Virus record (IMG/VR): IMGVR_UViG_3300042197_002234
Span: 1-64,000 of that record
Reading direction: 5' to 3' (one strand)
Length of the DNA stretch: 64,000 nt
From: a virus
In this document: positions 28,441 through 62,068 of the stretch, piece by piece
Layout of the letters: every line of letters begins with the position of its first letter
Position numbering within the stretch: position 1 is the stretch's first letter
The notes under the pieces: generated by a model
Seen by the model: the letters and a program-made list of their open reading frames with translations, nothing else
Databases searched by the model: none
What the model was told of the DNA's origin: nothing
Program-made: the position numbers and the translations under genes

Positions 28441-28441
28441 A

Positions 28442-29689: not shown

Positions 29690-29818
29690 AGACTTTCTTT
29701 TTATTGAAAAATAGATAAAAAAATAAAAAAGTTAAGATTAATAAATCTTGTTTAAAACAAAAATATCCGAATAGATTGAGTTTAATGGACTACTAGAACT
29801 AAATTGGGCAGTAACATC

Positions 29819-30343: not shown

Positions 30344-30435
30344 TCCTATAAATATAACACGATACCGTTTACCATAAATAGATAATTAGTTAAACTTGGT
30401 ATGTAATTTTTGTCTTTTTTATTTATTATTCATGT

Positions 30436-33345: not shown

Positions 33346-33346
33346 T

Positions 33347-36031
33347 ATGGTAAAGAAAAAACTTTTAGTTGTTACGCCTCACTTAAGTACTGGTGGTGCC
33401 CCTCAAGTTACTTTAAATAAAATAAAATTGTTGATAAATGATTATGAAATTAAGTGTGTTGAGCACGATTTTGTTGCGTGGAGTTTTGTTGTGCAAAGAA
33501 ACCAAATTCAAGAAATGTTGGGTGAAAATTTTATTTCATTAGGTCAAGATAAGTCTCAACTATTATCAATTATTGATGAGTTTAAACCTGATGTAATTTA
33601 TATGGAGGAGTTTCCTGAATTTTTTATGCCAGACGATGTTACAAAAATAATATATTCAAAAGATAGAAAATATACTATTTTAGAAACAACACATGACTCC
33701 AGTTTTCCTGTAAACTCAAAAAGGTGGTTTCCTGATAAATTTATTTTTGTAAGTGCGTTTAATGGTTTTAGATATTCGGTCTATGATGTACCATATGAAA
33801 TTGTTGAGTATCCTGTAGATTATAAAGAAAAAAATAAAACAGAAAATCAAAACTTATTGAATTTTGACCCGTCATATAAACATGTGTTAAATGTTGGTCT
33901 GTTTACGAGGAGAAAAAATCAAAGTTATATTTTTGAAATTGCAAAACTATTAAAAAACTATAAAATAAAATTTCACTTTTTAGGTAATCAAGCCGATAAC
34001 TTTAAAGATTATTGGGAACCTTTAATTAATGACAAACCTGAAAATTGTGTAGTATGGGGAGAAAGAAAAGACGTTCAAAGTTTTATTGAGGCATCAGATT
34101 TATTCTTTTTTGCGTCAAAGGGGGACAGACATAATAAAGAATTAAACCCTATAGCATTAAAAGAGGCTTTAGAATATAAAATACCTATGATGATGCACAA
34201 TTTAGATGTGTATTGTGGTAAGTATAACAATTACGATAATATAACATTTTTAACTGGTGATGTGAACAAAGATAGTCAAAAATTATTGGAACTATTAAAA
34301 CCATATAAAGAAAATTATGAAAACGAGTTGGTCATGATTGGTACTTATCCTAACACCAAATCAAGAGAAAAACTAACTTTAGATTGTATTGATTCTGTTA
34401 AAAAATTAGGTAGAAAAGTTATGTTAGTGTCTCACTACACTGTTTCATCCGAAATTCAAGAAAAGGTCGATTACTATGTGTATGACAAATATAATCCAAC
34501 AACTGAACATTCATACTATACAAGATTTTATAATTACAAACATGATTTTGATGTCGAAATAAATATTAATGGTTTAAAAAATACAAACCAATCTTTACCC
34601 GTACTAACAAATTTAATTAATGGTTTTAGAGCCGCAAAAGATTTAAACTTTGAAAAAGTATTTTACATAACTTACGATGTTATTTTAAACCCTAACGACA
34701 TTGAACACGTTAACAATTCATTTATTGAGGTTGATAGTCACAACGCATATCTATGTACATTACCAACCCCTTTTGGATATGGTATTGAAACTACCGCAAT
34801 GACTTTTAAAACTGATTATTTCTTGCAAAAATTAGAACATATTAGAACACCTAATGATTATAAATTATCAGTTAATAAATTTAATTGTCATAACTTTTTA
34901 GAGGATTTTTTTTGGAATGTATTTTCAAATGAGAATAATGTTAAAATTATCACAAATGAACAAAGCACATTTTTGATAAATTCAGGTAAAGGAGTTTCAT
35001 CTAATTCAGAATATTACTCTATCGTACCAATTAAAAATACAACAGATAAATGGGTGTTTTATTTTTATACCTATAATATTGATAATAGATGTGTTAATGT
35101 TGAGGTTATTGAAAATGGTGATATTTCTTTTTCTAAAAAATTTAAGATTTCAGAACAAAGGGAGTTTTTAAAAGAATTAAAATATAATGGAAATCAGATA
35201 GAAATTACATTAACTTTTTATGAAGATAATATTGTTTATAAAACAGAAAAATATGTTTTAAATAATCAAACAATAACCCAACATAAAAATAACGGATGGT
35301 TTAAATATAAAAAACTACCAAATATTAAATTAGTTCATATACAGACAACTAATAACGATGAGAGAGAACAACTCTCAAGACAATCACTACAACAAGTTAT
35401 TCCACACGGAATTAAATATACTTTACATACTAATGAATTATATAAATCACTTCCACCATCACATAATTGTGTGAGACCTCAATGCGTTTCAATGGAGTTA
35501 TTTGATGAAGAACAGGTTAAACAATTTGGTACCGCTCTAACACCCGCTCACTACGGTTGTTATGAATCTTTTAAAAATGCGATACTGTCTGAATTTGATG
35601 ACGATTTAGATTTTCTAATAGTTTGCGAAGGTGATTGTATTATTGAAGTACCAATTGATGATTTTATTCAAAAATTAAATCAGTCATGTGAAATAATTAG
35701 CCAAGCAAATATTGAGTATTTTTCTTTTGGTGATACTAAAACTTTAGATTTTGGTTGGCATCAGTCAAATGTTATTGAGGATATCCCAAATCAAGATTTA
35801 TTATTTATTACCGATAAAATAATTGGGTTACAGTGTATTATGTTTCCTCGTAAAACTAAAGAATTTTTACATCAACAATTAAGAACTCATAAGTGGGATT
35901 GTGCCGACACTTATTTTAATATGATTTTTGCTGAATATGGTTTAAAAATGGGTATACTAAAAAATAGAATAACTACACAGGCTGACGGTGTATCGTTAAT
36001 AGATAAAGAATATAAAACATTTATAAAATAA
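33347..36031 (+). CDS. Three-domain glycosyltransferase (GT4 + unknown GT-A-like + GT25-like)
   Basis: PHLSTGGAPQV, VGLFTRRKNQ and KEALEY (GT4); a middle domain paralogous to 36031-37011; HYGCYES...VCEGD (GT25-like). Confidence 0.8.
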   Translation: MVKKKLLVVTPHLSTGGAPQVTLNKIKLLINDYEIKCVEHDFVAWSFVVQRNQIQEMLGENFISLGQDKSQLLSIIDEFKPDVIYMEEFPEFFMPDDVTKIIYSKDRKYTILETTHDSSFPVNSKRWFPDKFIFVSAFNGFRYSVYDVPYEIVEYPVDYKEKNKTENQNLLNFDPSYKHVLNVGLFTRRKNQSYIFEIAKLLKNYKIKFHFLGNQADNFKDYWEPLINDKPENCVVWGERKDVQSFIEASDLFFFASKGDRHNKELNPIALKEALEYKIPMMMHNLDVYCGKYNNYDNITFLTGDVNKDSQKLLELLKPYKENYENELVMIGTYPNTKSREKLTLDCIDSVKKLGRKVMLVSHYTVSSEIQEKVDYYVYDKYNPTTEHSYYTRFYNYKHDFDVEININGLKNTNQSLPVLTNLINGFRAAKDLNFEKVFYITYDVILNPNDIEHVNNSFIEVDSHNAYLCTLPTPFGYGIETTAMTFKTDYFLQKLEHIRTPNDYKLSVNKFNCHNFLEDFFWNVFSNENNVKIITNEQSTFLINSGKGVSSNSEYYSIVPIKNTTDKWVFYFYTYNIDNRCVNVEVIENGDISFSKKFKISEQREFLKELKYNGNQIEITLTFYEDNIVYKTEKYVLNNQTITQHKNNGWFKYKKLPNIKLVHIQTTNNDEREQLSRQSLQQVIPHGIKYTLHTNELYKSLPPSHNCVRPQCVSMELFDEEQVKQFGTALTPAHYGCYESFKNAILSEFDDDLDFLIVCEGDCIIEVPIDDFIQKLNQSCEIISQANIEYFSFGDTKTLDFGWHQSNVIEDIPNQDLLFITDKIIGLQCIMFPRKTKEFLHQQLRTHKWDCADTYFNMIFAEYGLKMGILKNRITTQADGVSLIDKEYKTFIK

Positions 36032-37011
36032 TGAAAAAATTAATTGTTATTGGGGCTTACCCAAATACACCAAAAAAGAAAGAAGTTTTAGTTGATGAAA
36101 TAAAATCGTTAAAATCTTTAGATTTTGATTTTATGTTGGTCACACATTATCCTACTCCTGTATATATACAGGAAATGTTTGATTACTACATTTATGATAA
36201 AAATCAAACTTTAACACCATTAGATAAAACAACATATTTTTGGTTTAATAGTGGTTCTTTTCTTGTTAGAATAAATAACTCAAGGCACGCTTTACCTATA
36301 AGTCAAAGTATGTTTAACGCTTTTAAATTTTCTGAAATAAAAAACTATGATTTTGTTTATTTTATTGAAAACGATAATTGGTTTTCAGAGAATGATTCTA
36401 AAAAACTTTCTGATTTGGTTACCACTATGTTTGAAAATAACAAAAAATGTATTTTTTTTAAACCTGAAAGTTATAGAGACAATGGTTCTTACGTTTACGA
36501 AACTCAGTTATTTGGAATAACCCCAAAATATTTTAATCAAGTTTTTAATTTACCTATAACAGAAGAAGAGTACTTTTCACATCCAACATATCCCGTTAGT
36601 TTAGAGTTAGGTTTTTATCAAAAACTTTCTGAGTTTGAAGATGATTTTTTAATAATAAATGAACACTCCTATCAATATTTTAATGAAAGTAAAATTAATA
36701 TTTTTAGGGTTGAAAATTTATTAATAGATTTAGTTTATAATAGTAAAAATCCTGCTCAACCTGTTTTGTTTTGTTATGGTAATAGAGTTTTTGACGACTT
36801 ATATAGAGTAATTGTAAGGTTAAATAACATTATAATTAATGATAGAAATTTACATTCAAACAATTGGTTTTATCAAACATTTGATTTGGATGGTAGTAAT
36901 TTGGTTTTTGAAATTTATAACAATGATGTACTACAAGAAAAAAAATCTTATACTTTAGATGAACACTTAATAGATAATTTAAAAGATAAAGGTATAATAG
37001 ATTTTAATTAA
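36031..37011 (+). CDS. Hypothetical glycosylation protein, paralog of the middle domain of the upstream GT
   Basis: LIVIGAYPNT...MLVTHY aligns with LVMIGTYPNT...MLVSHY. Confidence 0.65.
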   Translation: MKKLIVIGAYPNTPKKKEVLVDEIKSLKSLDFDFMLVTHYPTPVYIQEMFDYYIYDKNQTLTPLDKTTYFWFNSGSFLVRINNSRHALPISQSMFNAFKFSEIKNYDFVYFIENDNWFSENDSKKLSDLVTTMFENNKKCIFFKPESYRDNGSYVYETQLFGITPKYFNQVFNLPITEEEYFSHPTYPVSLELGFYQKLSEFEDDFLIINEHSYQYFNESKINIFRVENLLIDLVYNSKNPAQPVLFCYGNRVFDDLYRVIVRLNNIIINDRNLHSNNWFYQTFDLDGSNLVFEIYNNDVLQEKKSYTLDEHLIDNLKDKGIIDFN

Positions 37012-37012
37012 T

Positions 37013-37558
37013 ATGGCACACAACCAACAACAAAATTTTTACGGTAGGGTTAAAAATAAATTTCCAAAATATTTTAGAGATGTTAAAGTACTTGATATAG
37101 GTTCTTTAGACATAAATGGTAATACAAAACATTTTTTTTCACATCCACTATATTATGTCGGTGTGGACCTTTCAGAAGGTAATAACGTAAATGTGGTTTG
37201 TCCTGGTCACCTTTATGATTCAGGATTCCAATTTGATGTTGTAATGTCTTCTGAGTGTTTTGAACATGATATGTATTACCCAAGGACAATATCAAATATG
37301 ATTAAACTATTAAAACCAAATGGATTAATGATATTTACTTGCGCATCTACAGGAAGACCTGAACATGGTACATTAAGGTCAAATCCTACCGACGCACCAT
37401 TTTTACAAAATATTGATGAAAAATGGGCGAATTATTATAAAAATTTAACAGAGGATGACATTAGAGCAATTATAAATGTTGAAGACATTTTCAGTGATTA
37501 CGGTTTTGAATATGAACCATCTTCATGTGATTTATATTTTTGGGGAATTAAAAAATAA
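37013..37558 (+). CDS. Class I SAM methyltransferase
   Basis: VLDIGSLDING, YVGVD, FDVVMSSECFEH, LKPNG. Confidence 0.9.
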   Translation: MAHNQQQNFYGRVKNKFPKYFRDVKVLDIGSLDINGNTKHFFSHPLYYVGVDLSEGNNVNVVCPGHLYDSGFQFDVVMSSECFEHDMYYPRTISNMIKLLKPNGLMIFTCASTGRPEHGTLRSNPTDAPFLQNIDEKWANYYKNLTEDDIRAIINVEDIFSDYGFEYEPSSCDLYFWGIKK

Positions 37559-37564
37559 TAATTA

Positions 37565-38251
37565 ATGAATGTTGATGTAATTTGTTTAACTAACACATAC
37601 GATTACAGTATGTTTGAAGTAACAAAAAGAGTTATTAAGTCATTACATTTGTCTGAAAAAAATATTAAGTTTAATATTATTCTATTAGAAAGCAATAAAA
37701 ACAATCCATATGTATATACGGATGTTGATTTTTATATAAAACCTGAAGAAGATTTTAATTATAACAAATATTTAAATATCGCAAATAAATACCTAACATC
37801 AGATTGGGTTTTGATTACAAATAATGATGTAATCTATCAAAGAAATTGGTTTTCAAAAATATTAGAGATATATAATAAACGACCTGATATAGAATCTTTC
37901 TCACCTAAAGAAGTACTTTTTTATTCAACAATATACGGAGACCATTTTGATTCTGACGATGAATATTGGGAAAATTATAAAGTAACCGAAGGTCTTTTAG
38001 GATGGTCTTTATTAATGAAAAAAAAAGTTTGGGATGAGGTTTATCCGTGGGACGAACAATTCGATTTTTTTTATCAAGATAATGATTATGCAAAAATAAT
38101 AGAATCAAAAGGTATTAAACACGCAATAGTTAGAGATTCATTGACTTTACATATAGGTAATTTAAATTTCTTTAAAGATGTTGTTGACCACGAAAGAAAT
38201 ACAAAAATGAAAGAAGGGTATAATAAATTTTTAAATAAATGGGGTAATTAA
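37565..38251 (+). CDS. GT2-family glycosyltransferase
   Basis: FNYNKYLN, ITNNDV, WDEQFDFFYQDND. Confidence 0.8.
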   Translation: MNVDVICLTNTYDYSMFEVTKRVIKSLHLSEKNIKFNIILLESNKNNPYVYTDVDFYIKPEEDFNYNKYLNIANKYLTSDWVLITNNDVIYQRNWFSKILEIYNKRPDIESFSPKEVLFYSTIYGDHFDSDDEYWENYKVTEGLLGWSLLMKKKVWDEVYPWDEQFDFFYQDNDYAKIIESKGIKHAIVRDSLTLHIGNLNFFKDVVDHERNTKMKEGYNKFLNKWGN

Positions 38252-40357
38252 ATGAGAATAATACACGTAACACCAGGAATGATACCAATCCCACCTAATG
38301 GATGGGGTGCGGTAGAAAAAATAATTTGGGAATACCATAAAAATTTACAGAAGTTAGGTTATGAATCTGAAATTAGATACCTAAATGAGGTTAACTATAA
38401 AGATGGTGACATCGTACACATCCACATAGCCAATTTAGCTTTGGAGACATATGAAAGAGGAATACCATATATTTTCTCATTACATGACCACCATGTGGTA
38501 TATAATGGAAAAGATTCTTTTAATTATAAACAAAACTTAGAAGCAATTAAAAAATCAGTAGTTTCATTCTGTCACGCAGAATATTTGGTTGATTATTTTG
38601 ATGAAACCGATAAGTTGTTTTATTTGTCGCATGGTGTAAACACAGATTTCTTTAAAGTAGAAAATCCATACAGAAGTGAACATCGTTTATTGTGTTTAGC
38701 TAATAACGGAATCGGTGGTGATTCATCTTATGATAGGAAAGGTTTCAGATATGCAATTGAAGCTGCAAAAAAATTAAATTTACCAATCACTGTCGCGGGC
38801 CCCGATAACAACAAAAACTTCTTTCAACACCATTTAGATTTAATGGATTATGATAAACTAACATTGTTGTTTGATAATCCAAATGAAGACAGTATTTTAG
38901 AGTTGTATAAAAATCACTCAATATTTTTACACCCATCTTCATTAGAAGCTGGTCATCCAAATTTAACATTATTAGAGGCGATATCTTGTAATCTACCAAT
39001 AGTTGGAACTTACGAAGGTAATAGAAAAATACACGGTATGATTGTGACTGAAAGAGATTCAAATCGTGTTGCAAACTCAATTCAAGAAATAATATCAAAT
39101 TATGAATATTATGTTAATGAAACTTTTAAAAATAAAGAAAATTTTGATTGGTCTACAATAACAAATAGATTATCAAAAATGTACAATTTAGTTAGTATTA
39201 TTAAAAAAGAGTATAATTCTGAAGAAACAAAAAGTTTATTAATTAATAATATTGAAAATACATCAAGGTTTGATTATAAAAAAGATAATAACTTAACATT
39301 TAATGTTCATTTTGTAAACAACCCGTTTTTTGAAATTTTAGGTGATTCAGATAAAGAATATAATGTTCTTTTTTATGATAATGATGAACTAATTTATTCA
39401 ACAAAACTTAGAGCCAATATGTGGTCAAAACTTAATAGGTCATATTATACAAATTGGATAATTGAGGTTTACGATGAAGACAAATTAATTTATAGATACA
39501 CAACTAACTTTACAGGTAAAAGAGTTTTTATTTCATTTGACTCAAAGTCATTAGGGGATAATGTATCTTGGATACCGTATGTGTTAGAATTTAAGAAAAA
39601 ACACAATTGTAATGTTGTTGTTTCAACATTTTGGAATAAACTATTTAAGGATGTGTATCCCGAACTCGAGTTTGTTGAGCCAGGTAGTGTTGTGGATGAT
39701 TTAGTCGCAATGTATAGAATAGGATGGTTTTATGATAATAATCAAGAACCAGTTTTACCAAGTACTATTCCACTACAAAAAGCAATTACAAATATTTTGG
39801 GATTAGAGTTTGAGGAAATAAGACCAAGAATTCACTTTGAACCAAAAGAAAGATTGTTTGAGGAAAAGTATATCACAATCGCAAATGAATCTACTGCAGG
39901 TTTAAAGTTATGGAACAATCCTAATGGTTGGCCAGAATTAGTATCATATTTAAAATCAAAAGGTTATAGAGTGGTTAATGTATCTAAAAATGGTGAAAGA
40001 TTAAAAGGTGTTACACAACTAAAAGACACGTCAATTGAAAATACCATGAATGCTATTTATCATAGTGAGTTCTTTATTGGTTTATCTAGTGGGTTGTCTT
40101 GGTTAACATGGGGGTTAGGTAAACATGTAGTTATGATTTCAAACTTCACTGAGTATGACCATGAATTTACTTCAAACTGCACAAGAATTACAAACCCATC
40201 TGTCTGTCATGGATGTTGGAATAACCCTATGTTTAAGTTTGATAAGGGTGATTGGAATTGGTGTCCTGAGCATAAAGGAACTGAAAGACATTTTGAATGT
40301 CATAAATCAATAACTGCGGAAATGGTTATAGAAAAAATAAAACATTTATTACAATGA
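38252..40357 (+). CDS. GT4 fused to an Aah/TibC-type protein O-heptosyltransferase
   Basis: N-terminal GT4 (GWGAVEKI, EAGHPNLTLLEA). C-terminal half: SLGDNVSWIPY..EF..KHNC, FFIGLSSGLSWLTW, CHGCW...WCP.H..T.R.FEC, matching the TibC pattern including four Fe-binding Cys. Confidence 0.9.
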   Translation: MRIIHVTPGMIPIPPNGWGAVEKIIWEYHKNLQKLGYESEIRYLNEVNYKDGDIVHIHIANLALETYERGIPYIFSLHDHHVVYNGKDSFNYKQNLEAIKKSVVSFCHAEYLVDYFDETDKLFYLSHGVNTDFFKVENPYRSEHRLLCLANNGIGGDSSYDRKGFRYAIEAAKKLNLPITVAGPDNNKNFFQHHLDLMDYDKLTLLFDNPNEDSILELYKNHSIFLHPSSLEAGHPNLTLLEAISCNLPIVGTYEGNRKIHGMIVTERDSNRVANSIQEIISNYEYYVNETFKNKENFDWSTITNRLSKMYNLVSIIKKEYNSEETKSLLINNIENTSRFDYKKDNNLTFNVHFVNNPFFEILGDSDKEYNVLFYDNDELIYSTKLRANMWSKLNRSYYTNWIIEVYDEDKLIYRYTTNFTGKRVFISFDSKSLGDNVSWIPYVLEFKKKHNCNVVVSTFWNKLFKDVYPELEFVEPGSVVDDLVAMYRIGWFYDNNQEPVLPSTIPLQKAITNILGLEFEEIRPRIHFEPKERLFEEKYITIANESTAGLKLWNNPNGWPELVSYLKSKGYRVVNVSKNGERLKGVTQLKDTSIENTMNAIYHSEFFIGLSSGLSWLTWGLGKHVVMISNFTEYDHEFTSNCTRITNPSVCHGCWNNPMFKFDKGDWNWCPEHKGTERHFECHKSITAEMVIEKIKHLLQ

Positions 40358-40734
40358 AAATAGAAGTATCAATTGGTGAGATTGTTGACAAATTAACAAT
40401 TTTGGAAATTAAAAAAGATAAAATAAAGGATGAAAATAAATTGGTTGATATCTTAAAAGAGTATAACTATTTAAAAGATGTTGTAACAAATGAAATTGGA
40501 TTTTCATTAGAATCCGAAGAATATAAAGATTTATTGGAAACAAATAAAAAACTTTGGGATATTGAAGACCATATTAGAAATAAAGAAAAAAGAAAATCTT
40601 TTGATATTGAATTTATTGAGTTGGCTAGAAATGTGTATATTACAAATGATGTTAGAGCATCACAAAAAAAAGATATAAATCTGAAACTTAATTCAGAATT
40701 TATAGAACACAAATCATATTCTGACTATAAATAA
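40354..40734 (+). CDS. DUF6165-like protein
   Basis: IEVSIGEIVDKLTILEIK...LWDIEDHIR...FIELARNVYITND.R...K..IN. Confidence 0.7.
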   Translation: MKIEVSIGEIVDKLTILEIKKDKIKDENKLVDILKEYNYLKDVVTNEIGFSLESEEYKDLLETNKKLWDIEDHIRNKEKRKSFDIEFIELARNVYITNDVRASQKKDINLKLNSEFIEHKSYSDYK

Positions 40735-40768
40735 AAAAAGGGGGGTTTTAAAACTCCCTTTTTTTATA
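40729..40768. terminator. Bidirectional terminator between the GT operon and the giant repeat gene
   Basis: ATAAAAAAAGGGGGGTTTT/AAAACTCCCTTTTTTTAT inverted repeat with A/T tracts on both sides, between convergent genes. Confidence 0.8.
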
Positions 40769-43700
40769 ATGGGTCATTACATTCGTTATAAACTAATGTG
40801 TATGTAAAATATCTAGGACCCGCATTAGTACCATCTGAGTTAAAACCAACTATAATGTTTGTGTTACATTCAAGTATTTCGTCCTGTAATGTAAGGGTAA
40901 AACAAGCCACGCCAGCGGCGTTAAATGAGGTAACATCACTTGCTATTTCAGTTATAGTAAATGTAGATGATGTTAAATCATCACATTCGTATTTAAAAAG
41001 ATATGCGGTTACACTATTAGCCAAACCATCAACAGGACTTGTTACAGTACCACACAATTTTATAGTTCCAGAACTTAACATGTCGATAGGTACTGGTACA
41101 CCTATAAATCCTTGTGTTCTGGTATCGAAGGGTGATATTCCATCCCAAGCGATATCCCAAGGACATCCATTCCAACCACAAGTATTATTGGCGATGTAAA
41201 CGTCAGTATCATTAGGTCCTTGTGTCCAACTACCTGAATTTGATGCTAATAAAAATTGTCTTTTAATGTTAATTGTTGCATCACCTGTAGTGCCTTCAAC
41301 AATACCACAAGACCCCGCAACTGTTAAACCTGTGACACTAGTTACCGTAGTAGCACCATCGGTGACAGTTAAAGAACCACCACCACTTGATGTACCCGAA
41401 CTACCCGAGGTTCCTGATGAACCTGTTTGACCTGCAGTACCTGAACTACCTGAACTACCACTTGAACCTGAGGTACCGCTAGCCCCACTAACACCACTTG
41501 TGCCCGCAGTTCCATTAGCTCCGCTAGTACCTGAAGTTCCTTTAGTTCCTGAGGTTCCACTAGACCCTGAAGTACCCGAACTACCTGAAGAACCACTTGA
41601 ACCTGATGTTCCACTTGTTCCTGAAGTACCGTTAACTCCTGAAGTACCACTTGTACCATTAACTCCTGAAGTACCACTTGTACCAATCGAACCATCACAA
41701 CCATTACAACATACTTTGAAACATAATACATCACCATAAGAGAATGGACTTGCGGAACTTGAAGATGCGAATATCGGACCTTCAATAAAGAAGGAAGTAG
41801 AATTCAATCTTCCAACACCAGACCAATCTGAATAGTGTACAAATTTTGTTGGGTCTGCTTGATTATATATTGTTAAATTTCCACCACAAATACATTTGTT
41901 GAAAACTTCATATTGATTTACACCATTGTTATCAAAATCATAGAAGTGTAAATATGTTGCTGCCGATACAGTTAACGTAGTTGCTGAAGAACCTGTGATA
42001 AACGCAAATTCACCATTAGAATCAGGAGTACTATCGTTTGTTAACGTATATGGTAAACAATAAGCTGATACCCCACTAGTTCCTGATGTTCCACTTGTTC
42101 CTGAACTACCTGACGTTCCTCTAGTTCCTGATGTTCCTGAAGAGCCGCTGCTGCCACTTGAGCCCGAAGAACCCGACGTTCCACTTGTTCCTGATGAACC
42201 ACTTGAACCTGAACTACCTGATGTTCCACTTGAACCTGAAGAACCTGAACTTCCTGATGAACCACTGCTACCACTAGTACCAGATGTACCCGAACTACCT
42301 GATGAACCACTTGAACCTGAAGAACCGCTACTTCCACTTGTGCCTGATGTACCTGAGCTACCTGATGTTCCGCTAGTTCCTGAACTACCTGATGAGCCGC
42401 TTGAACCTGACGAACCACTAGTGCCTGATGTTCCTGAAGAACCACTACTTCCACTAGAACCTGAACTTCCTGAAGAACCACTTGTGCCCGAAGTACCACT
42501 ACTTCCGCTAGACCCTGAACTTCCGCTCGAACCTGAAGTACCCGAAGAACCGCTACTACCGCTTGTTCCTGATGTTCCACTTGAGCCTGACGTTCCGCTA
42601 GTCCCTGAAGAACCACTTATACCTGAAGTTCCTGAACTACCTGATGTTCCTGAAGAGCCAGATGACCCCGAAGAACCTGAGCTACCTGATGAACCGCTAG
42701 ACCCACTTGTACCCGCAGTCCCTGAACTTCCTGATGTTCCACTTGTTCCTGATGAGCCACTTGTACCGCTCGAACCTGAGGAACCACTATTTCCACTTGA
42801 ACCCGACGTTCCACTTGTTCCTGAAGAACCACTACTACCGCTTGAGCCCGAGCTACCTGAAGTACCACTAGTTCCTGAACTTCCTGAAGAGCCGCTACTA
42901 CCACTTGACCCTGAAGAACCGCTACTACCGCTTGTTCCTGAAGTTCCACTATTTCCTGAAGAACCACTTGAACCACTACTACCGCTAGAACCCGATGTTC
43001 CACTAGTTCCTGAACTTCCTGAAGAGCCGCTACTACCACTTGACCCTGATGTTCCGCTAGTCCCTGAAGAACCTGAAGTACCACTTGTACCACTAGTTCC
43101 CGAACTACCTGATGAACCACTACTACCGCTAGAACCTGATGAACCGCTAGTTCCACTTGAACCTGAAGAGCCAGAACTTCCTGAAGAACCACTACTACCG
43201 CTCGAACCTGAACTACCTGATGTCCCACTTGTACCTGAAGAACCGCTTGTACCTGACGTGCCGCTTGAGCCTGATGACCCACTACTTCCTGAACTACCGC
43301 TAGAACCTGAAGTTCCTGAACTGCCAGAAGAACCACTACTACCGCTAGAACCTGAAGTTCCTGAAGAACCTGATGTTCCGCTAGTACCTGATGACCCTGA
43401 ACTTCCACTACTACCTGAAGAACCGCTTGTACCGCTAGTACCCGAACTACCTGAAGTTCCACTTGTTCCTGATGACCCTGAACTTCCACTACTACCGCTA
43501 GAACCTGATGTTCCACTAGTTCCCGAAGAGCCGCTTGTACCGCTTGTTCCTGAACTACCCGAAGAACCACTACTACCGCTTGAGCCCGAGCTACCTGAAG
43601 TTCCGCTTGTTCCTGACGAGCCGCTACTACCCGAACTTCCACTACTACCCGATGTTCCACTCGTTCCTGATGAGCCACTTGTGCCACTAGAACCTGAGCT

Positions 43701-46700
43701 ACCTGAAGAACCGCTAATTCCACTTGTTCCCGAAGAACCTGAACTTCCTGAAGAACCACTACTTCCTGATGTACCGCTAGTACCGCTAGTACCTGAACTA
43801 CCGCTAGAACCTGAACTTCCTGAAGAACCGCTGCTACCACTAGAGCCTGATGTGCCGCTAGTTCCCGAACTTCCACTTGTACCGCTAGTTCCTGAAGAAC
43901 CTGAACTACCACTAGAACCCGAAGCACCGCTTGTACCTGATGAGCCGCTTGAACCTGAAGAGCCTGATGAACCACTACTACCGCTAGTTCCTGATGTACC
44001 ACTTGACCCACTACTACCGCTTGAACCTGAACTTCCTGATGAGCCTGATGTACCGCTTGTTCCTGAAGAACCACTTGAGCCTGAACTTCCCGATGAACCA
44101 CTACTACCGCTAGTTCCTGATGAGCCACTACTACCACTTGTACCAGATGTACCTGAACTTCCTGAAGTACCACTAGTTCCTGATGTTCCCGAACTACCAC
44201 TCGTACCCGAACTTCCTGAAGAACCGCTAGTACCTGCAGTACCTGAAGAACCCGATGTTCCACTTGAACCTGAGCTACCTGATGAACCGCTACTACCGCT
44301 AGTTCCTGATGAACCACTAGTACCGCTAGTACCTGAACTACCGCTTGAACCTGAAGAACCACTACTTCCACTTGTGCCGCTAGTACCTACAGTTCCTGAT
44401 GAACCACTAGTACCGCTAGTACCTGAACTACCGCTTGAACCTGAAGAACCACTACTTCCACTAGTACCCGAAGTACCTGAACTTCCTGATGTACCGCTTG
44501 AGCCTGAACTACCCGATGTTCCACTAGTTCCTGAAGAACCACTAGACCCTGAACTACCTGAAGTTCCGCTAGTTCCTGAAGAACCTGATGTTCCGCTAGT
44601 TCCTGAAGAACCACTAGACCCTGAACTACCTGAAGTTCCGCTAGTTCCACTTGAGCCTGATGACCCTGAACTTCCACTACTACCTGAAGAACCACTTGTA
44701 CCGCTAGTACCCGAACTACCTGAAGTTCCACTTGTTCCTGAAGAGCCTGATGAACCACTACTACCGCTTGAGCCCGAGCTACCTGAAGAGCCGCTTGTTC
44801 CTGCAGTTCCTGAACTACCTGAAGAACCACTACTACCTGATGTTCCACTAGTTCCTGATGAACCACTTGTACCGCTAGTTCCACTTGAACCACTACTACC
44901 TGAAGTACCTGAAGAGCCACTAGACCCTGAACTTCCGCTACTACCGCTTGAACCCGATGTTCCACTTGTACCGCTAGTTCCTGATGTTCCTGAAGAACCT
45001 GATGTTCCGCTTGTTCCTGAACTACCTGATGAACCACTACTACCACTAGTCCCTGAAGTACCACTAGTTCCTGAAGTACCACTAGTTCCCGAACTTCCTG
45101 AAGACCCTGATGTTCCGCTAGTACCTACAGTACCTGATGTTCCTGAAGAACCACTTGTACCGCTTGTACCTGACGAACCACTAGACCCACTAGAACCTGA
45201 ACTACCACTTGTTCCTGAACTTCCTGAAGTCCCACTAGTACCTGATGAACCTGATGTTCCACTAGTTCCACTTGAACCTGAACTTCCTGAAGAGCCACTT
45301 GTACCGCTAGTTCCTGATGTTCCACTAGACCCTGAACTTCCTGATGAACCCGAAGTTCCACTAGTTCCTACAGTACCACTACTTCCGCTAGACCCTGAAC
45401 TTCCGCTCGAACCTGAAGTACCCGAAGAACCGCTACTACCGCTTGTTCCTGATGTACCTGACGAGCCTGATGTTCCACTAGACCCTGAACTTCCTGAAGT
45501 CCCACTAGTACCAGAACTTCCTGATGTTCCGCTAGTTCCTGAACTACCGCTTGTTCCTGATGTACCTGACGAGCCTGATGTTCCACTAGACCCTGAACTT
45601 CCTGATGTTCCGCTAGTACCACTTGTACCCACAGTTCCTGAGCTTCCTGACGTACCGCTTGAGCCTGAGCTTCCTGAAGTCCCACTAGTACCAGAACTTC
45701 CTGATGTTCCGCTAGTTCCTGATGAACCGCTTGAACCTGAGCTACCTGAAGAACCTGATGTTCCACTTGTACCCGAACTTCCTGAAGACCCTGAACTTCC
45801 ACTACTACCGCTAGAACCTGATGTTCCACTAGTTCCCGAAGAGCCGCTTGTACCGCTTGTTCCTGAAGTTCCACTTGAACCTGAAGTACCGCTAGAACCA
45901 GAAGAGCCGCTACTACCACTAGAACCTGATGTTCCACTTGTACCCGCAGTACCTGAGCTTCCTGATGAACCGCTACTACCTGATGAGCCACTTGTACCGC
46001 TTGTTCCTGAACTACCCGAAGAACCACTACTACCGCTAGAACCTGATGTTCCACTTGTACCCGAAGTACCTGAGCTTCCTGACGTTCCACTAGTTCCCGA
46101 AGAACCACTAGACCCTGAAGAGCCTGAACTACCTGAAGTTCCACTAGTTCCTGATGAGCCACTTGTGCCCGAAGTTCCACTTGAACCTGAACTTCCTGAT
46201 GAACCGCTACTACCTGATGTCCCACTTGTACCTGAAGAACCACTAGTTCCTGATGAACCACTACTACCACTTGTACCAGATGTACCTGAACTACCACTTG
46301 TACCTGATGTTCCTGAAGAACCGCTTGACCCTGAAGAACCTGAGCTACCTGAAGTTCCGCTTGTTCCCGAAGAGCCTGATGTACCACTTGTGCCTGAAGT
46401 TCCACTTGAACCTGAACTTCCTGATGAACCTGACGTACCGCTAGTTCCTGAAGAACCACTACTTCCGCTTGAACCTGAGGTTCCACTTGTACCTACAGTC
46501 CCTGATGTACCTGAACTACCTGATGTTCCGCTACTTCCACTAGAACCTGAACTTCCGCTTGTTCCTGATGTTCCTGAACTACCACTTGTACCGCTAGTTC
46601 CTGATGAACCACTTGAACCCGAACTTCCTGATGAACCACTACTACCGCTAGTACCATTAGTTCCACTTGTTCCCGAAGAACCTGATGTTCCACTTGACCC

Positions 46701-49700
46701 ACTACTACCACTTGTACCTGATGTTCCTGAAGAACCGCTTGACCCTGAAGAACCTGAGCTACCTGAAGTTCCGCTTGTACCGCTTGTTCCCGAACTTCCT
46801 GATGTACCGCTAGTTCCTGAAGAACCACTTGTTCCTGAAGTTCCACTTGAACCTGAACTTCCTGATGAGCCACTACTACCGCTTGAACCTGAGGAACCGC
46901 TACTACCGCTAGTTCCTGATGAACCACTACTTCCACTAGAACCTGATGTTCCGCTAGTACCTGAACTACCGCTCGAGCCTGATGTACCGCTAGTACCCGA
47001 ACTACCTGATGAACCACTACTACCACTTGAACCTGAGCTACCTGATGTTCCGCTAGTTCCAGAAGAACCACTAGACCCTGAACTTCCACTACTTCCTGAT
47101 GAACCTGATGTTCCACTAGTACCTACAGTCCCACTTGAGCCAGATGTACCCGAACTACCTGACGAACCACTAGAACCTGAACTACCACTTGTTCCGCTAG
47201 TTCCTGATGTTCCACTTGTTCCTGAAGTCCCACTAGTACCTGATGAACCTGATGTTCCACTTGTTCCCGAAGAGCCTGATGTACCACTTGAGCCTGAACT
47301 ACCAGAAGACCCCGATGTACCACTACTTCCACTTGTGCCGCTAGTTCCTGATGAACCATCTGTTCCACTAGTACCTGAGCTACCTGAAGTGCCGCTAGTT
47401 CCTGATGAACCACTTGACCCTGATGTTCCGCTAGTTCCTGAAGTTCCGCTAATACCCGAAGTACCACTTGTACCGCTAGTACCTGATGTTCCTGAAGAAC
47501 CATCAGTTCCACTTGTTCCTGAAGTACCACTACTACCATCTGTTCCTGATGTTCCACTTGACCCTGATGTACCCGAAGTTCCTGAGCTACCATCAGTACC
47601 TGAAGTTCCGCTTGAACCCGATGTTCCTGATGAACCACTAGTTCCTGATGAACCACTAGTTCCTGATGAACCACTAGTTCCGCTAGTTCCTGATGAGCCA
47701 TCAGTACCACTACTACCGTCTGTACCACTAGAACCTGATGTTCCGTTAGTTCCACTTGTACCATTACTACCGTCAGTACCTGAACTCCCACTAGAACCTG
47801 ATGTTCCGCTAGTTCCACTTGTACCATTACTACCGTCAGTACCTGAAGTTCCGCTTGTTCCCGAACTACCACTAGTACCTGATGTTCCACTAGTTCCTGA
47901 CGAACCACTGCTACCACTAGTACCTGATGTGCCATTACTACCATCAGTTCCTGATGAACCTGAAGTTCCACTAGTTCCGCTACTACCATCTGTTCCGCTT
48001 GTTCCTGAAGTACCGCTTGAACCTGATGTTCCACTTGTTCCTGAAGTACCGCTTGAACCTGAAGTTCCACTTGTTCCTGAAGAACCTGAGGTACCACTAC
48101 TTCCGTCAGTACCGCTACTACCATCTGTTCCGCTTGTTCCCGATGAACCACTTATACCTGAAGTACCGCTACTACCATCTGTTCCACTAGTTCCTGAAGT
48201 ACCACTACTACCATCAGTTCCGCTAGTTCCACTTGTTCCTGATGAACCATCTGTTCCGCTAGTTCCGCTTGAACCTGAAGTTCCGCTAGTTCCCGAAGAA
48301 CCTGATGTACCACTAGTACCACTACTACCATCTGTTCCTGATGTACCACTAGTTCCTGAAGTACCATTACTTCCATCAGTTCCGCTTGAACCTGATGTAC
48401 CACTTGTTCCTTTAGAACCATTTACACCGCTAATACCTGAAGAACCTGATGTACCATTAGTTCCTGAAGTTCCACTTGTTCCTGATGAACCATCTGTTCC
48501 GCTAGTTCCACTTGAACCATCTGTTCCGCTAGTTCCACTTGTTCCTGATGAACCGCTTGTTCCTGAGGTTCCACTTGTTCCAGAACTTCCATCAGTACCA
48601 CTTGTTCCTGAAGTTCCTGATGAACCATCTGTTCCGCTAGTACCTGATGTTCCTGAAGAGCCATCCGTTCCGCTATTACCCGAAGTTCCCGATGAACCAT
48701 CTGTTCCTGAATTTCCGCTAGTTCCCGATGAACCATCTGTTCCTGAAGTTCCGCTAGTTCCGCTTGAACCATCTGTTCCTGAAGTTCCGCTAGTTCCGCT
48801 TGAACCATCCGTACCTGAAGTTCCACTAGTTCCCGATGAACCATCTGTACCTGAAGTTCCACTAGTTCCCGATGAACCATCCGTTCCGCTAGTACCCGAA
48901 GTTCCCGATGAACCATCCGTTCCGCTAGTACCACTAGTTCCTGATGAACCATCTGTTCCGCTAGTACCACTAGTTCCTGATGAACCATCTGTTCCTGACG
49001 TACCACTAGTTCCTGATGAACCATCTGTTCCACTGGTTCCTGAAGAACCGCTTGTCCCACTACTACCATCCGTACCTGAACTACCACTTGTTCCTGAAGT
49101 GCCGCTACTACCATCAGTACCTGAAGTTCCACTAGTACCACTTGAGCCATCAGTACCTGATGAACCATCCGTACCACTAGTACCACTAGTTCCTGAAGTT
49201 CCGCTTGAACCTGATGTTCCACTAGTTCCTGAAGTACCATTACTTCCGTCAGTTCCGCTTGAACCTGATGTTCCACTAGTTCCTGAACTTCCATCAGTAC
49301 CACTTGTTCCTGAAGAACCATCAGTTCCGCTAGTACCTGAAGTTCCACTTGTTCCTGAAGAACCGTCTGTCCCACTAAAACCACTTGTCCCTGAAGTTCC
49401 ATTTGAACCATCTGTACCTGAAGTACCACTTGTTCCTGAAGAACCACTAGTACCCGAAGAACCGTCAGTTCCGCTTGAACCTGATGTGCCGCTACTACCA
49501 TCAGTCCCTGAACTACCATCAGTCCCTGAACTACCATCAGTCCCTGAACTACCATCAGTCCCTGAACTACCTGACGTACCACTAGTTCCTGATGTACCAT
49601 TAGAACCATCCACACCACTTATTCCTGAAGAACCTGAAGAACCACTTGTTCCTGAAGAACCGTTTGTCCCACTAGAACCACTTGTCCCTGAACTTCCATC

Positions 49701-50795
49701 TGTACCACTAGAACCACTTGTCCCTGAACTTCCATCTGTACCACTAGTACCACTTGTTCCTGAAGAACCGTCTGTTCCACTCGAGCCACTTGTTCCTGAA
49801 GAACCGTCTGTTCCACTAGAGCCACTTGTGCCTGAACTTCCATCTGTTCCTGACGAACCATCAGTACCTGAACTTCCACTTGTCCCTGAACTTCCATCCG
49901 TACCTGATGAACCATCAGTACCTGAACTTCCTGAAGAACCACTAGTTCCTGAACTACCATCAGTACCTGAACTTCCATCAGTTCCGCTTGTACCTGAAGA
50001 ACCACTTGTACCTGAAGAACCACTTGTACCTGAACTTCCGCTTGTTCCTGATGAACCTGAAGTTCCTGATGAACCACTTGAGCCTGAACTTCCTGATGTA
50101 CCTGAACTTCCTGATGTACCGCTAGTTCCTGATGACCCACTTGAACCTGAAGTTCCGCTTGTTCCTGAACTACCATCTTGACCGCTAGTCCCTGATGTAC
50201 CATCTTGACCGCTAGTACCTGAACTACCATTTGTACCTGAAGACCCACTACTTCCGCTAGACCCTGAACTACCGCTACTACCTGAACTACCGCTACTACC
50301 TGAACTTCCTGAAGTTCCACTAGTACCTGAACTACCATCTTGACCGCTAGTCCCTGATGTGCCATCTTGACCGCTAGTACCTGAACTACCTGGAGAGCCA
50401 GTACCGCTTGTTCCCGAAGACCCACTACTACCTGGAGAGCCAGTACCGCTTGTTCCCGAAGACCCACTACTACCTGAAGTTCCTGACGAACCACTATTTC
50501 CACTTAAACCTGAACTACCTGAAGTACCGCTACTACCCGAAGACCCACTTGTACCTGAACTACCATCAGTACCTGATGTGCCATCAACACCACTTGTTCC
50601 TGAGCTACCGTCAATACCACTTGTTCCTGAAGTTCCACCTAAAGCCAAAGCATCTGCAACTTGTTTTATGGTTGCTTTATATGATGAGCCTGCAGGATTT
50701 TGGGAAGTGTCCCCTGTTATTACTATGTGGATTACGTCGTTTTCCGAAACTCCTGTTGCTAGTACCCTGTCTGTAAGTCTTTGATAATTCGGCAT
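40764..50795 (-). CDS. Giant Ser/Thr collagen-like (Gly-X-Y) fibre protein, 3343 aa
   Basis: 53-aa N-terminal head, about 2850 aa of GTS/GSS/GTD triplets, a Cys-rich domain, a second roughly 100-aa GXY run, and a C-terminal domain of about 205 aa. Confidence 0.9.
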   Translation of the reverse strand: MPNYQRLTDRVLATGVSENDVIHIVITGDTSQNPAGSSYKATIKQVADALALGGTSGTSGIDGSSGTSGVDGTSGTDGSSGTSGSSGSSGTSGSSGLSGNSGSSGTSGSSGSSGTSGTGSPGSSGSSGTSGTGSPGSSGTSGQDGTSGTSGQDGSSGTSGTSGSSGSSGSSGSSGSSGSSGSSGSSGTNGSSGTSGQDGTSGTSGQDGSSGTSGTSGSSGSSGTSGTSGSSGTSGSSGSSGSSGTSGSSGTSGSSGTSGSSGTSGSSGTSGTDGSSGTDGSSGTSGSSGSSGTDGSSGTDGSSGTSGSSGTDGSSGTDGSSGTSGSSGTDGSSGTSGSSGTDGSSGTSGTSGTDGSSGTSGSSGTDGSSGTSGSSGTNGSSGTSGSSGSSGISGVDGSNGTSGTSGTSGSSGTDGSSGTDGSSGTDGSSGTDGSSGTSGSSGTDGSSGTSGSSGTSGTSGTDGSNGTSGTSGFSGTDGSSGTSGTSGTSGTDGSSGTSGTDGSSGTSGTSGSSGTDGSNGTSGTSGTSGSSGTSGTSGTSGTDGSSGTDGSSGTSGTSGTDGSSGTSGTSGSSGTDGSSGTSGSSGTSGTDGSSGTSGTSGTDGSSGTSGTSGTDGSSGTSGTSGTDGSSGTSGTSGTDGSSGTSGTSGTDGSSGTSGTSGTDGSSGTSGTSGTDGSSGTSGTSGTDGSSGTSGNSGTDGSSGTSGNSGTDGSSGTSGTSGTDGSSGTSGTSGTDGSSGTSGTSGTSGSSGTSGTSGTDGSSGTSGTDGSSGTSGTSGTNGTSGSSGISGVNGSKGTSGTSGSSGTDGSNGTSGTSGTSGTDGSSGTSGTSGSSGTSGTSGSSGTSGTDGSSGTSGTSGTDGSSGTSGTSGTDGSSGTSGISGSSGTSGTDGSSGTDGSSGTSGSSGTSGTSGSSGTSGTSGTSGSSGTSGTSGTDGSSGTSGTSGSSGTDGSNGTSGTSGSSGSSGTSGTSGTSGSSGTSGTSGTDGSNGTSGTSGTSGSSGSSGTDGSNGTSGTNGTSGSSGTDGSSGTDGSSGTSGTSGSSGTSGSSGTSGSSGTSGSSGTSGTDGSSGTSGTSGSSGTSGTDGSSGTSGTSGTDGSSGTSGTSGTSGTSGISGTSGTSGTSGSSGSSGTSGTSGSSGTSGTDGSSGTSGTSGSSGTSGSSGSSGSSGTSGSSGTSGTSGSSGTSGTSGTSGTSGTSGTSGSSGSSGSSGSSGTSGSSGTVGTSGTSGSSGSSGSSGSSGSSGTSGTSGSSGSSGSSGSSGSSGTSGTSGSSGSSGTSGTSGSSGSSGSSGTSGSSGSSGSSGSSGSSGSSGSSGTSGTSGSSGTSGTSGSSGTSGTSGTSGSSGSSGSSGSSGTSGTSGSSGSSGTSGSSGTSGTNGTSGSSGSSGSSGSSGSSGTSGTSGSSGTSGTSGSSGSSGSSGTSGSSGTSGTVGTSGTSGSSGSSGSSGTSGTSGSSGSSGSSGTSGTSGTSGSSGTSGTSGSSGSSGSSGSSGTSGTSGSSGTSGTSGSSGSSGTSGSSGTSGTSGSSGSSGSSGSSGTSGTSGSSGTSGTSGSSGSSGSSGSSGTSGTSGSSGTSGTSGTSGSSGSSGSSGSSGTSGTSGSSGSSGSSGSSGTAGTSGTSGSSGSSGSSGSSGTSGSSGTSGTSGTSGSSGTSGTSGSSGSSGSSGSSGSSGTSGTSGSSGSSGSSGSSGTSGTSGSSGTSGTSGSSGSSGTSGSSGTVGTSGTSGTSGSSGSSGTSGSSGTSGTSGSSGTSGTSGSSGTSGTSGSSGSSGTSGSSGTSGTSGSSGSSGTSGSSGSSGSSGSSGTVGTSGTSGSSGSSGSSGTSGTSGTSGSSGSSGSSGTSGTSGSSGTSGTSGSSGTSGSSGSSGSSGSSGTSGTSGSSGTSGTVGTSGTSGSSGSSGTSGTSGTSGTSGTSGSSGSSGSSGTSGTSGSSGTSGTSGTSGTSGSSGSSGSSGSSGSSGTSGSSGSSGTSGTSGSSGTSGTSGSSGSSGSSGTAGTSGSSGSSGSSGSSGSSGSSGTSGTSGSSGTSGTSGSSGSSGSSGSSGSSGTSGTSGSSGSSGSSGTSGTSGSSGTSGTSGSSGSSGSSGTSGTSGSSGSSGTSGSSGTSGTSGSSGSSGSSGSSGTSGTSGSSGTVGTSGTSGSSGSSGSSGSSGTSGTSGSSGTSGSSGSSGSSGSSGTSGSSGTAGTSGSSGSSGTSGSSGTSGTSGTSGSSGTSGTSGSSGSSGTSGSSGSSGSSGSSGSSGTSGTSGSSGSSGSSGSSGSSGTSGTSGSSGSSGSSGSSGSSGTSGASGSSGSSGSSGTSGTSGSSGTSGTSGSSGSSGSSGSSGSSGSSGTSGTSGTSGSSGSSGSSGSSGTSGISGSSGSSGSSGTSGSSGTSGTSGSSGSSGSSGSSGTSGTSGSSGSSGSSGSSGSSGTSGTSGSSGTSGTSGSSGSSGSSGSSGTSGTSGSSGTSGTSGSSGSSGSSGSSGTSGTSGSSGTSGSSGSSGSSGSSGTSGSSGSSGSSGSSGSSGTSGTSGSSGTSGTSGSSGSSGSSGSSGSSGSSGSSGTSGSSGSSGSSGSSGSSGTSGTSGTSGSSGTSGTSGSSGSSGSSGSSGTSGTSGSSGSSGSSGSSGNSGTSGTSGSSGSSGSSGSSGSSGSSGTSGTSGSSGSSGSSGSSGTSGTSGSSGNSGSSGSSGTSGSSGTSGTSGSSGTAGTSGSSGSSGSSGSSGSSGSSGTSGSSGTSGISGSSGTSGTSGSSGTSGTSGSSGSSGTSGSSGSSGSSGSSGTSGTSGSSGSSGSSGSSGSSGTSGTSGSSGSSGSSGSSGTSGTSGSSGTSGTSGSSGSSGSSGSSGSSGTSGTSGSSGSSGSSGSSGSSGTSGSSGSSGSSGTSGTSGSSGSSGSSGSSGTSGTRGTSGSSGTSGTSGTSGVSAYCLPYTLTNDSTPDSNGEFAFITGSSATTLTVSAATYLHFYDFDNNGVNQYEVFNKCICGGNLTIYNQADPTKFVHYSDWSGVGRLNSTSFFIEGPIFASSSSASPFSYGDVLCFKVCCNGCDGSIGTSGTSGVNGTSGTSGVNGTSGTSGTSGSSGSSGSSGTSGSSGTSGTKGTSGTSGANGTAGTSGVSGASGTSGSSGSSGSSGTAGQTGSSGTSGSSGTSSGGGSLTVTDGATTVTSVTGLTVAGSCGIVEGTTGDATINIKRQFLLASNSGSWTQGPNDTDVYIANNTCGWNGCPWDIAWDGISPFDTRTQGFIGVPVPIDMLSSGTIKLCGTVTSPVDGLANSVTAYLFKYECDDLTSSTFTITEIASDVTSFNAAGVACFTLTLQDEILECNTNIIVGFNSDGTNAGPRYFTYTLVYNECNDPL
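41385..41693 (-). repeat. Second short Gly-X-Y segment of the fibre protein
   Basis: GSIGTSGTSGVNG...GTSS, about 100 aa between the two globular domains. Confidence 0.85.
42066..50636 (-). repeat. Degenerate 9-bp-period tandem repeat encoding about 950 Gly-(Ser/Thr)-(Ser/Asp) triplets
   Basis: aa 54-2910 is 2857 residues, which equals 951 triplets plus two GT dipeptide slips near the N-terminus. The antisense shadow ORF has Pro at every third residue over 2613 aa. Confidence 0.95.
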
Positions 50796-58548: not shown

Positions 58549-58550
58549 TC

Positions 58551-61401: not shown

Positions 61402-61412
61402 TACACAATAAA

Positions 61413-62066: not shown

Positions 62067-62068
62067 AA

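Follow-up and report, generated by a model that had tools for sequence, protein, structure and literature searches.

The closest described counterparts of the locus reported here are the TibC-TibA and Aah-AIDA-I pairs of E. coli (BAHT family; PDB 4RAP/4RB4), in which TibC and Aah hyperglycosylate serine residues of repetitive adhesins encoded beside them (PMC4358343). We describe a phage locus in which a giant fibre gene, P0001, coding for a protein of 3343 amino acids (aa) with glycine at every third position, is found 407 bases from a gene for a TibC/Aah-type enzyme. Both genes lie in the window, that is, the whole stretch of 64,000 nucleotides that was analysed, which covers positions 1 to 64,000 of the IMG/VR phage contig IMGVR_UViG_3300042197_002234 (a 195.5-kb record with a CheckV completeness estimate of 65%). 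The gene is carried by an uncultured giant lake phage, which is a distant T4-like myovirus. We put at about 55% the probability that the product is a trimeric virion fibre, the stalk of which is heavily O-glycosylated in the cytoplasm by the neighbouring enzymes.

As in the two E. coli systems, the phage enzyme is a soluble, cytoplasmic member of the family with the catalytic Asp and the iron-finger Cys residues kept, and its gene stands beside that of a long, repetitive, Ser-rich surface protein offering many acceptor sites per molecule. The E. coli systems are bacterial, however, whereas here the enzyme belongs to a phage, is fused to a glycosyltransferase family 4 (GT4) domain, has Arg286 replaced and uses a donor sugar that is unproven. 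The substrates also differ: strand-loop-strand repeats of a beta-helix in the adhesins, a putative Gly-X-Y stalk in the phage.

In overall plan, the protein is closer to the BclA/BclA3-type exosporium proteins of Bacillus and Clostridioides, in which a short anchor at the N-terminus is followed by a collagen-like part with abundant hydroxy amino acids and, at the C-terminus, by a trimeric knob of the TNF/C1q type. The anchor-stalk-knob arrangement and the presence of glycosyltransferase genes nearby are common to both. BclA, though, consists of tens of Gly-Pro-Thr triplets with Thr in Y, whereas the phage stalk is practically Pro-free, with Thr in X, Ser in Y and about 950 triplets, and no sequence relation between the BclA knob and the phage tip was detected. 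BclA glycans are cited in PMC11923368, and BclA3/SgtA in PMC7157674.

Collagen-like phage fibres have been described (Smith et al. 1998, cited in PMC1079782), and orf028 of cyanophage P-SSM2 is 49% Gly-X-Y, often with Pro, Ser or Thr at X and Y (PMC1079782). Also on record are very long prokaryotic collagen-like proteins, with as many as about 2000 triplets, and viral triplets rich in Thr (PMC11923368). P-SSM2 orf028, PRD1 P5 and the PHROG class 'collagen like minor tail' share with the present protein the use of Gly-X-Y stalks in trimeric host-recognition proteins. They differ in having tens to a few hundred triplets, with Pro, and none has been reported with a dedicated protein-glycosylation enzyme.

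Fibrils of giant viruses reportedly carry glycans. Glycans on mycobacteriophage capsids and tail tubes are described by Freeman 2023 (as cited in PMC12619734), and at least two virion glycoproteins were reported for the cultured jumbo phage XacN1 (PMC5852040). These viruses resemble ours in encoding their own soluble glycosyltransferases together with tailoring enzymes (aminotransferase, methyltransferases); they differ in the enzyme families used, and the acceptor here would be a collagen-register repeat with about 1900 hydroxyls. Our literature search returned no paper that ties a TibC-type enzyme to phage fibres or describes Pro-free giant stalks. If the proposed function is correct, virion glycosylation would reach beyond a few proteins of mycobacteriophages into a widespread clade of aquatic jumbo phages, and the BAHT family would be moved from bacterial adhesins into viruses.

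The giant Gly-X-Y protein and its terminal domains

P0001 is a single open reading frame (ORF) with an ATG start on the minus strand (40764..50795). Its main stalk, Gly-[Thr/Ser]-[Ser/Asp], covers residues 54-2910 (42066..50636, minus strand) and a second stalk of 35 triplets covers residues 3032-3136 (41388..41702, minus strand; Pfam Collagen 2e-14). Counted by script, the Gly-X-Y triplets number 986 and fall into four runs (residues 54-119, 122-133, 136-2910 and 3032-3136), the register of the main stalk being broken by one residue twice, near residues 119 and 133, before 926 triplets follow without interruption. Among the 986 triplets, X is Thr in 482 and Ser in 474, and Y is Ser in 886 (90%), Asp in 65 and Asn in 16. 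There are 17 Pro residues in the whole protein and one in the 926-triplet run, which contains no Lys/Arg-Gly-Glu/Asp pair; Ser and Thr together number 1927, of which 1746 fall in that run. Asp occupies Y at about every fourth triplet in the proximal third of the stalk; the distal two thirds are neutral, and no long-range periodicity of Thr versus Ser was found in the neutral zone. With Gly at every third residue, the protein gives 64 matches to Pfam Collagen (PF01391) above the curated cut-off, and there are none elsewhere in the 195.5-kb record. Three parts are globular: a head of 53 aa, a Cys-containing domain of 121 aa (residues 2911-3031) and a C-terminal region of 207 aa (residues 3137-3343). 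The last two hold all 15 Cys residues, seven (counted by eye) and eight, respectively.

The gene, its composition and its modules are thus established, and in these respects the sequence-only reading was accurate: it had described a 3343-aa protein almost without proline and with X and Y nearly all Ser or Thr, a short head resembling a fibre anchor, two distal Cys-containing domains and well over 1500 hydroxyl acceptors, and its estimate of about 950 triplets is close to the 986 counted. A plus-strand ORF at 42340-50181 (2613 aa, 33% Pro) was considered as a gene and rejected as a shadow frame, lying wholly inside the repeat and having no flanking domains.

Whether the length is real was raised by the same reading, which named an assembly artefact as one of the outcomes that would overturn it. 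Many related contigs stop inside such genes, and assemblies therefore do struggle there; exact repeats within P0001 reach 84 bases and one local tandem array of a 36-base unit is present. On the other hand, no 91-mer recurs, and kilobase-scale self-alignments of the gene reach 65-67% identity with no long near-identical blocks. A comparably repetitive relative of 9.4 kb (3117 aa) occurs in 10 IMG/VR records from different samples with its ORF at identical coordinates, and its DNA is the same in all five records compared. Further complete relatives are 2733, 3192 and 3726 aa long, the last with 1102 triplets, and both ends of P0001 are conserved domains in frame. That the length or the reading frame is an artefact of the repetitive region is consequently scarcely credible: the scale of the gene is well supported, and the exact number of triplets is less certain.

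The repeat is also not the product of recent duplication. In-register, ungapped DNA identity averages 0.579, against 0.583 expected from position-specific codon usage, and AGY and TCN codons both serve for Ser at the same positions. Since the repeat DNA keeps no homology beyond the 36-base array, the Gly-X-Y pattern must be held by selection on the protein; Gly is invariant across 926 consecutive triplets although the DNA is no more alike than codon usage predicts. One relative, a complete 3726-aa ORF (locus L181, 2234-13411, plus strand) with 1102 Ser/Thr Gly-X-Y triplets, exceeds the gene of the window and is convergent with a 985-aa TibC-type fusion.

Viral contigs contain 210 relatives of the N-terminal head (residues 1-53; 50637..50795, minus strand), 60-85% identical to it, and the head is far better conserved than the sequence behind it; no relative was found in 185,579 prokaryote species genomes. 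From the 80 relatives fetched for inspection, head-bearing proteins were seen to range from 150 to more than 2000 aa, and 33 of the 80 have a Ser/Thr Gly-X-Y stalk. One head protein (L148) has YadA_head repeats, a C-terminal Peptidase_S74 chaperone and matches to tail-fibre PHROGs, and another (L114) matches collagen and tail-fibre PHROGs, so that the module is common to proteins with tail-fibre hallmarks. In ten contigs (L153-L160, L170 and L171; position 6001-6234) a degenerate head runs into a stop after 78 codons, where the repeat should begin; possible causes are a frameshift that has left a pseudogene, an error in sequencing the repeat, and recoding.

The C-terminal region (residues 3137-3343; 40767..41387, minus strand) contains a core at about 3177-3343 with four invariant Cys residues. 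A search of 1.84 billion representatives gave 36 relatives, most of them fragments at contig ends and often preceded by Gly-X-Y; the region belongs to no Pfam family, has no match in 50,697 phage records, and a word-index search among longer proteins was empty. An AF2 model built with the alignment of these relatives reached a pLDDT of 86.8. In Foldseek this model matched structures of the TNF family and of phage knobs with E values of about 1e-4 to 1e-5, and VIA gave Z scores of 9.5-9.3 for RANKL and 4-1BBL (root-mean-square deviation 3.0-3.5 Å over 119-125 aligned residues), 9.3 for the cell-binding domain of the short tail fibre of cyanophage A-1(L), 9.0 for the PRD1 P5 knob and 8.4 for a trimeric lectin. 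BclA and C1q were not among the best 50 VIA matches, which carries no weight. The tip can be confidently modelled as a TNF-like jelly roll akin to trimeric phage fibre knobs, and the structures that match it (RANKL, 4-1BBL, phage knobs) work as trimers.

The same head is joined directly to the same tip, with no stalk, in protein P0043 of locus L119; the stalk is therefore a spacer, of 0 to about 1100 triplets among relatives. This modular head-stalk-tip design amounts to a natural length series. The middle domain (residues 2911-3031; 41703..42065, minus strand) is an orphan: no BLAST relative was present in any fetched locus, an Atlas search gave unnamed viral clusters only, and its single-sequence AF2 model (pLDDT 41.5) is unusable. 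After the TNF-like domain come tandem arrays of six or seven Cys-rich modules, each about 62 aa long, in L009 (10600-11854) and in L119 (P0043 residues 230-661); they are absent from the protein of the window and have no family assignment.

The protein could be made and not be part of the particle, for example as a decoy or as a polymer that is set free at lysis and serves as matrix or adhesive. The size of P0001 is unusual for such a particle. Given that its head module is common to genes with tail-fibre hallmarks, that its tip resembles phage receptor-binding knobs and that tail genes are present in the same window, we regard a non-virion role as highly improbable.

The adjacent enzyme and its pairing with stalk genes

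The enzyme gene (38252..40357, plus strand) encodes a 701-aa protein with Pfam GT1 and GT9 matches, in which a GT4 domain is fused to a TibC/Aah-type protein O-heptosyltransferase domain (residues 372-698). It is convergent with the fibre gene, and the gap of 407 bases to the fibre stop is occupied by a gene for a DUF6165 protein (40354..40734, plus strand), the last of the plus-strand sugar operon, and by a hairpin (40737..40766) read directly from the sequence: an A-run, a GGGGGG stem, a loop, a CTCCC stem and a T-run. The hairpin was not listed by a consensus scan; placed between convergent genes, it looks like a bidirectional terminator.

Residues 372-698 of the fusion match TIGR04414, the NCBI equivalog model for Aah/TibC, at 2.7e-85 and 286.6 bits (cut-off 200), and also match the sequence of the TibC crystal structure (PDB 4RB4, residues 44-380) at 1.2e-49. 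The catalytic Asp, the sugar-binding residues and the four iron-finger Cys residues of TibC have been defined (PMC4358343); in the alignment Asp110, Thr226, Lys230, Trp305 and Cys339/342/358/370 are identical in the phage enzyme. Judged by its sequence, the fusion is a true member of the TibC/Aah protein O-heptosyltransferase family, and both its identity and its linkage to a repetitive Ser-rich gene are established.

The pairing is not confined to this phage. With the fusion as anchor, 119 viral stretches were matched and 80 loci were fetched (42-85% identity). A Ser/Thr Gly-X-Y ORF was found within 10 kb of the TibC-type enzyme in 42 of these 80, usually convergent and with a gap of 38-800 bases; of the 38 others, 13 have less than 4 kb of downstream flank. 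Five further records with TibC-type genes, chosen independently (via the head module and then the TIGR04414 model), all have an adjoining Ser/Thr Gly-X-Y ORF. Locus L009 repeats much of the gene set, with two tandem giants, a GT4+GT9-type+FkbM fusion, GT9, a LamG protein, a 100-aa protein, GT60 and a carbamoyltransferase; the GT9-type part of its fusion is 44% identical to the TibC-like half of the enzyme in the window. Among 50 head-bearing records, TibC-family matches were present in 5 of 19 with a stalk and 1 of 31 without, counts that come from related fragments and are not relied on. Specific co-variation of GT60 with the stalk was considered in the same records and rejected, GT60 being present in stalk-less relatives too.

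Both genes might instead merely share a variable host-recognition region, the fibre being unglycosylated and the enzymes serving to modify host lipopolysaccharide (as a block to superinfection) or phage DNA. DNA-modifying phage glycosyltransferases are known, and aquatic T4-like phages are reported to have many glycosyltransferases among their tail-fibre genes, as in pelagimyophage host-recognition clusters, where they have been read as O-chain modification enzymes (PMC7029224). The anchor loci with full flanks and no Gly-X-Y gene also fit such a role. The adjacent enzyme, however, matches a curated model for protein-serine heptosyltransferases and not one for lipopolysaccharide, and the convergent pairing with Ser/Thr Gly-X-Y genes persists while the enzyme diverges over the range of identities given above. 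The sugar-enzyme region around the two genes (described below) codes for no protein with a transmembrane segment and for no flippase or polymerase. As for DNA, there is no Tet/JBP family match in the record, a weak point since control genomes are also silent, and the sole ThyA-family gene scores as an ordinary thymidylate synthase and is 120 kb away. An unglycosylated fibre is, on balance, decidedly unlikely.

More than one giant may be encoded by a phage. In the phage with the 3117-aa giant (L100-L111 with L021-L029), a second giant of at least 2052 aa with a head of the window type lies about 7.8 kb upstream on the same strand and probably abuts the first. Since this phage and L009 each have a tandem pair, two giants per genome do occur. 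XacN1 has relatives of the GT60 and GT9 proteins; its ORF325 (3313 aa, near sugar genes) was examined as a possible collagen giant and is globular, not collagen-like. A 41-kb XacN1 stretch gave no tblastn match to the TibC-like protein and contains no collagen giant. The fibre gene is carried by no cultured relative.

Proposed function and structure of the stalk

On the reading that we favour, a glycosylated trimeric fibre, the 53-aa N-terminal adaptor would dock the fibre to the particle, the roughly 950 Gly-[Ser/Thr]-Ser triplets would serve as a spacer with freely evolving length, and the TNF-like C-terminal knob would trimerise the chains and probably bind the host. The Ser and Thr hydroxyls of the stalk would be heavily O-glycosylated while the protein is still in the host cytoplasm, the likely enzymes being the neighbouring TibC/Aah-type transferase, the GT4 fused to it and further soluble enzymes from the region (GT60, GT9, GT2 and methyltransferases). 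As imino acids and salt-bridge pairs are both lacking in the stalk, sugars are the likely source of its stiffness, solubility and protease resistance. They may also allow the chains, with their strict Gly-X-Y register, to wind up from the C-terminal knob into a triple helix of the collagen type.

The stability of collagen is usually explained by hydroxyproline, proline and charge pairs. The stalk has none of these and would provide a test of glycosylation alone driving folding. A precedent is (Gly-Pro-Thr)10, which is a coil unless galactosylated and is discussed with the cuticle collagen of Riftia (Mann 1996; Bann 2000, via PMC11923368). Sugar-dependent folding of the stalk is plausible, if unproven, because that peptide folds only when it carries galactose (PMC11923368). 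The Riftia analogy proposed by the sequence-only reading nevertheless turned out to be loose: the principle that a sugar on a hydroxy amino acid replaces hydroxyproline may carry over, whereas Riftia collagen and (Gly-Pro-Thr(Gal))10 have Pro in X and glycosylated Thr in Y, and the phage stalk has no imino acid. Its larger proposal, a giant whisker stabilised by glycosylation, has fared better in part. The head and the TNF-like knob argue for a fibre protein, which may be a whisker or else a fibre of the tail or baseplate, and glycosylation has become a concrete hypothesis, with a TibC/Aah-type gene 407 bases away and a pairing that recurs.

A collagen triple helix rises about 0.29 nm per residue, and a fully extended helix of the 2857+105 stalk residues would be about 0.85 micrometre long. 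Appendages of that size, several times the typical tail length, would have consequences for the rate of host encounter. In its strongest form the proposal would be a third way to make collagen: a helix free of imino acids and salt bridges, stable only through cytoplasmic glycosylation of most of its residues by the phage, and forming fibres of about 0.85 micrometre, longer than the particle, with their length tuned by repeat number. This we put forward tentatively, as a possibility with the odds against it.

Several observations weigh against a glycosylated collagen-type fibre, or against parts of it. Of the recognised stabilisers of collagen, neither imino acids at X or Y nor Lys-Gly-Glu/Asp salt bridges support the 926-triplet run. 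Gly-Thr-Ser and Gly-Ser-Ser are low in triple-helix propensity on host-guest peptide scales, and we know of no natural imino-free triple helix of such length. The glycosylated Thr residues of Riftia and BclA are in Y, and Thr in the phage stalk is in X. The substrates known so far for the BAHT family are beta-helical autotransporter repeats and not Gly-X-Y, and the fibre protein has no autotransporter barrel or strand-loop-strand passenger. In the enzyme, Arg286 of TibC, which binds sugar, is replaced by Thr, and Ser294 and Pro300 also differ. A heptose-7-phosphate-kinase-like gene of the PfkB type is present (23574..24314, minus strand; rfaE_dom_I 7e-33, below the equivalog cut-off), and the record, which is 65% complete, yielded neither an adenylyltransferase nor a GmhA-type (SIS) isomerase. 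Because of the replaced Arg286 and the missing adenylyltransferase and isomerase, ADP-heptose is only a candidate donor. About 25 of the anchor loci have full flanks and no Gly-X-Y gene. GT60 is present in 15 of the 50 head-bearing records, including stalk-less ones, and is thus clade-wide. The 84-base repeats and the 36-base array, finally, leave the exact length uncertain.

Some of these points would suit a fibre that is glycosylated and not a triple helix, its stalk being a tether (a leash or glycan brush) that is either flexible and mucin-like or a single polyproline-II chain. The near absence of Pro, the lack of charge pairs and the low-propensity residues are consistent with such a tether. 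So are the mucin-like Pro-Thr and poly-Thr tracts elsewhere in virion genes. Characterised GT60 enzymes add N-acetylglucosamine (GlcNAc) to Thr of mucin-like proteins (PMC9472816). A disordered linker, though, needs no Gly at every third position, and 926 consecutive Gly are kept here; diverged relatives keep 677-1102 triplets while their X and Y residues and their DNA drift, and the stalk terminates in a fold that is trimeric in the matched structures. A Gly register kept strictly for hundreds of triplets, and in many relatives that have diverged, speaks for a triple helix that starts from the C-terminal trimer rather than for a disordered linker, and we hold the non-helical tether to be somewhat unlikely.

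The sugar island and other neighbouring genes

The fibre gene is set in about 38 kb of DNA with many genes for sugar enzymes; at least 10 soluble glycosyltransferase domains surround it, in addition to GT60 and the heptose-kinase-like gene. The left arm of this island (25350..40357) contains an HtrL/YibB-like gene, GT60, GT9, a weak GT2 match, an FkbM methyltransferase, an 894-aa GT4, an S-adenosylmethionine (SAM) methyltransferase, a GT2-like gene and the GT4-TibC fusion. The GT60-type (PF11397) glycosyltransferase (28442..29689, minus strand; Pfam 2.8e-66, phrog_24687 1.5e-167) is 49% identical to XacN1 ORF334; for this protein and for the HtrL-like one, no solved relative was found by sequence. 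The right arm (57328..63470, plus strand) consists of a glycosyltransferase, a double GT2, a piece of a DegT-type aminotransferase, a WbqC-like gene and a methyltransferase, interspersed with an exonuclease gene and a dUTPase gene.

Two genes stand upstream of the fibre gene on the same strand (P0004 and P0005; 50840..53838, minus strand). P0005 (50840-51142, minus strand), the operon partner of the fibre gene, encodes a conserved protein of about 100 aa with a relative beside the GT60 gene in L009 (16888-17190); a longer paralogue (29819-30343, minus strand) adjoins the GT60 gene of the window, and the family could be an assembly factor or a partner of the fibre. Directly upstream of it, P0004 (51169-53838, minus strand) encodes 889 aa with 42 Cys residues in dense clusters, Pro-Thr linkers and a Pro-Thr C-terminal tail of about 100 aa; a LamG-like motif was recognised by eye, with no family match.

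Tail genes are located at 6.8-12.5 kb, where the sheath, tube and baseplate-hub genes were identified. The ORF at 4701-6629 (642 aa), which the sequence-only reading took as a candidate tape measure, matched no PHROG family. The tail sheath (9154-12489, minus strand; 1111 aa) carries an insert of mucin-like character (poly-Thr/Ser/Pro, with Thr in runs of 6-7), possibly a second acceptor for the GT60-type enzyme. In the 185-aa product of the ORF at 24744-25301 (minus strand), which is placed between a heptose-kinase/cupin pair and the HtrL-like gene, the last 50 or so residues are poly-Thr blocks mixed with Cys and Pro. The poly-Thr and Pro-Thr tracts of the sheath, of P0004 and of this ORF are probably further glycan acceptors.

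Among the sugar genes, an ORF at 56583-57344 (plus strand) with NUMOD3 and MTES_1575/DUF559-type endonuclease motifs is homing-endonuclease-like. The DegT-type aminotransferase ORF (61413-62066, plus strand; 217 aa) shows a match to the family models that is limited to about 80 residues close to their N-terminus, and this gene may be split or truncated.

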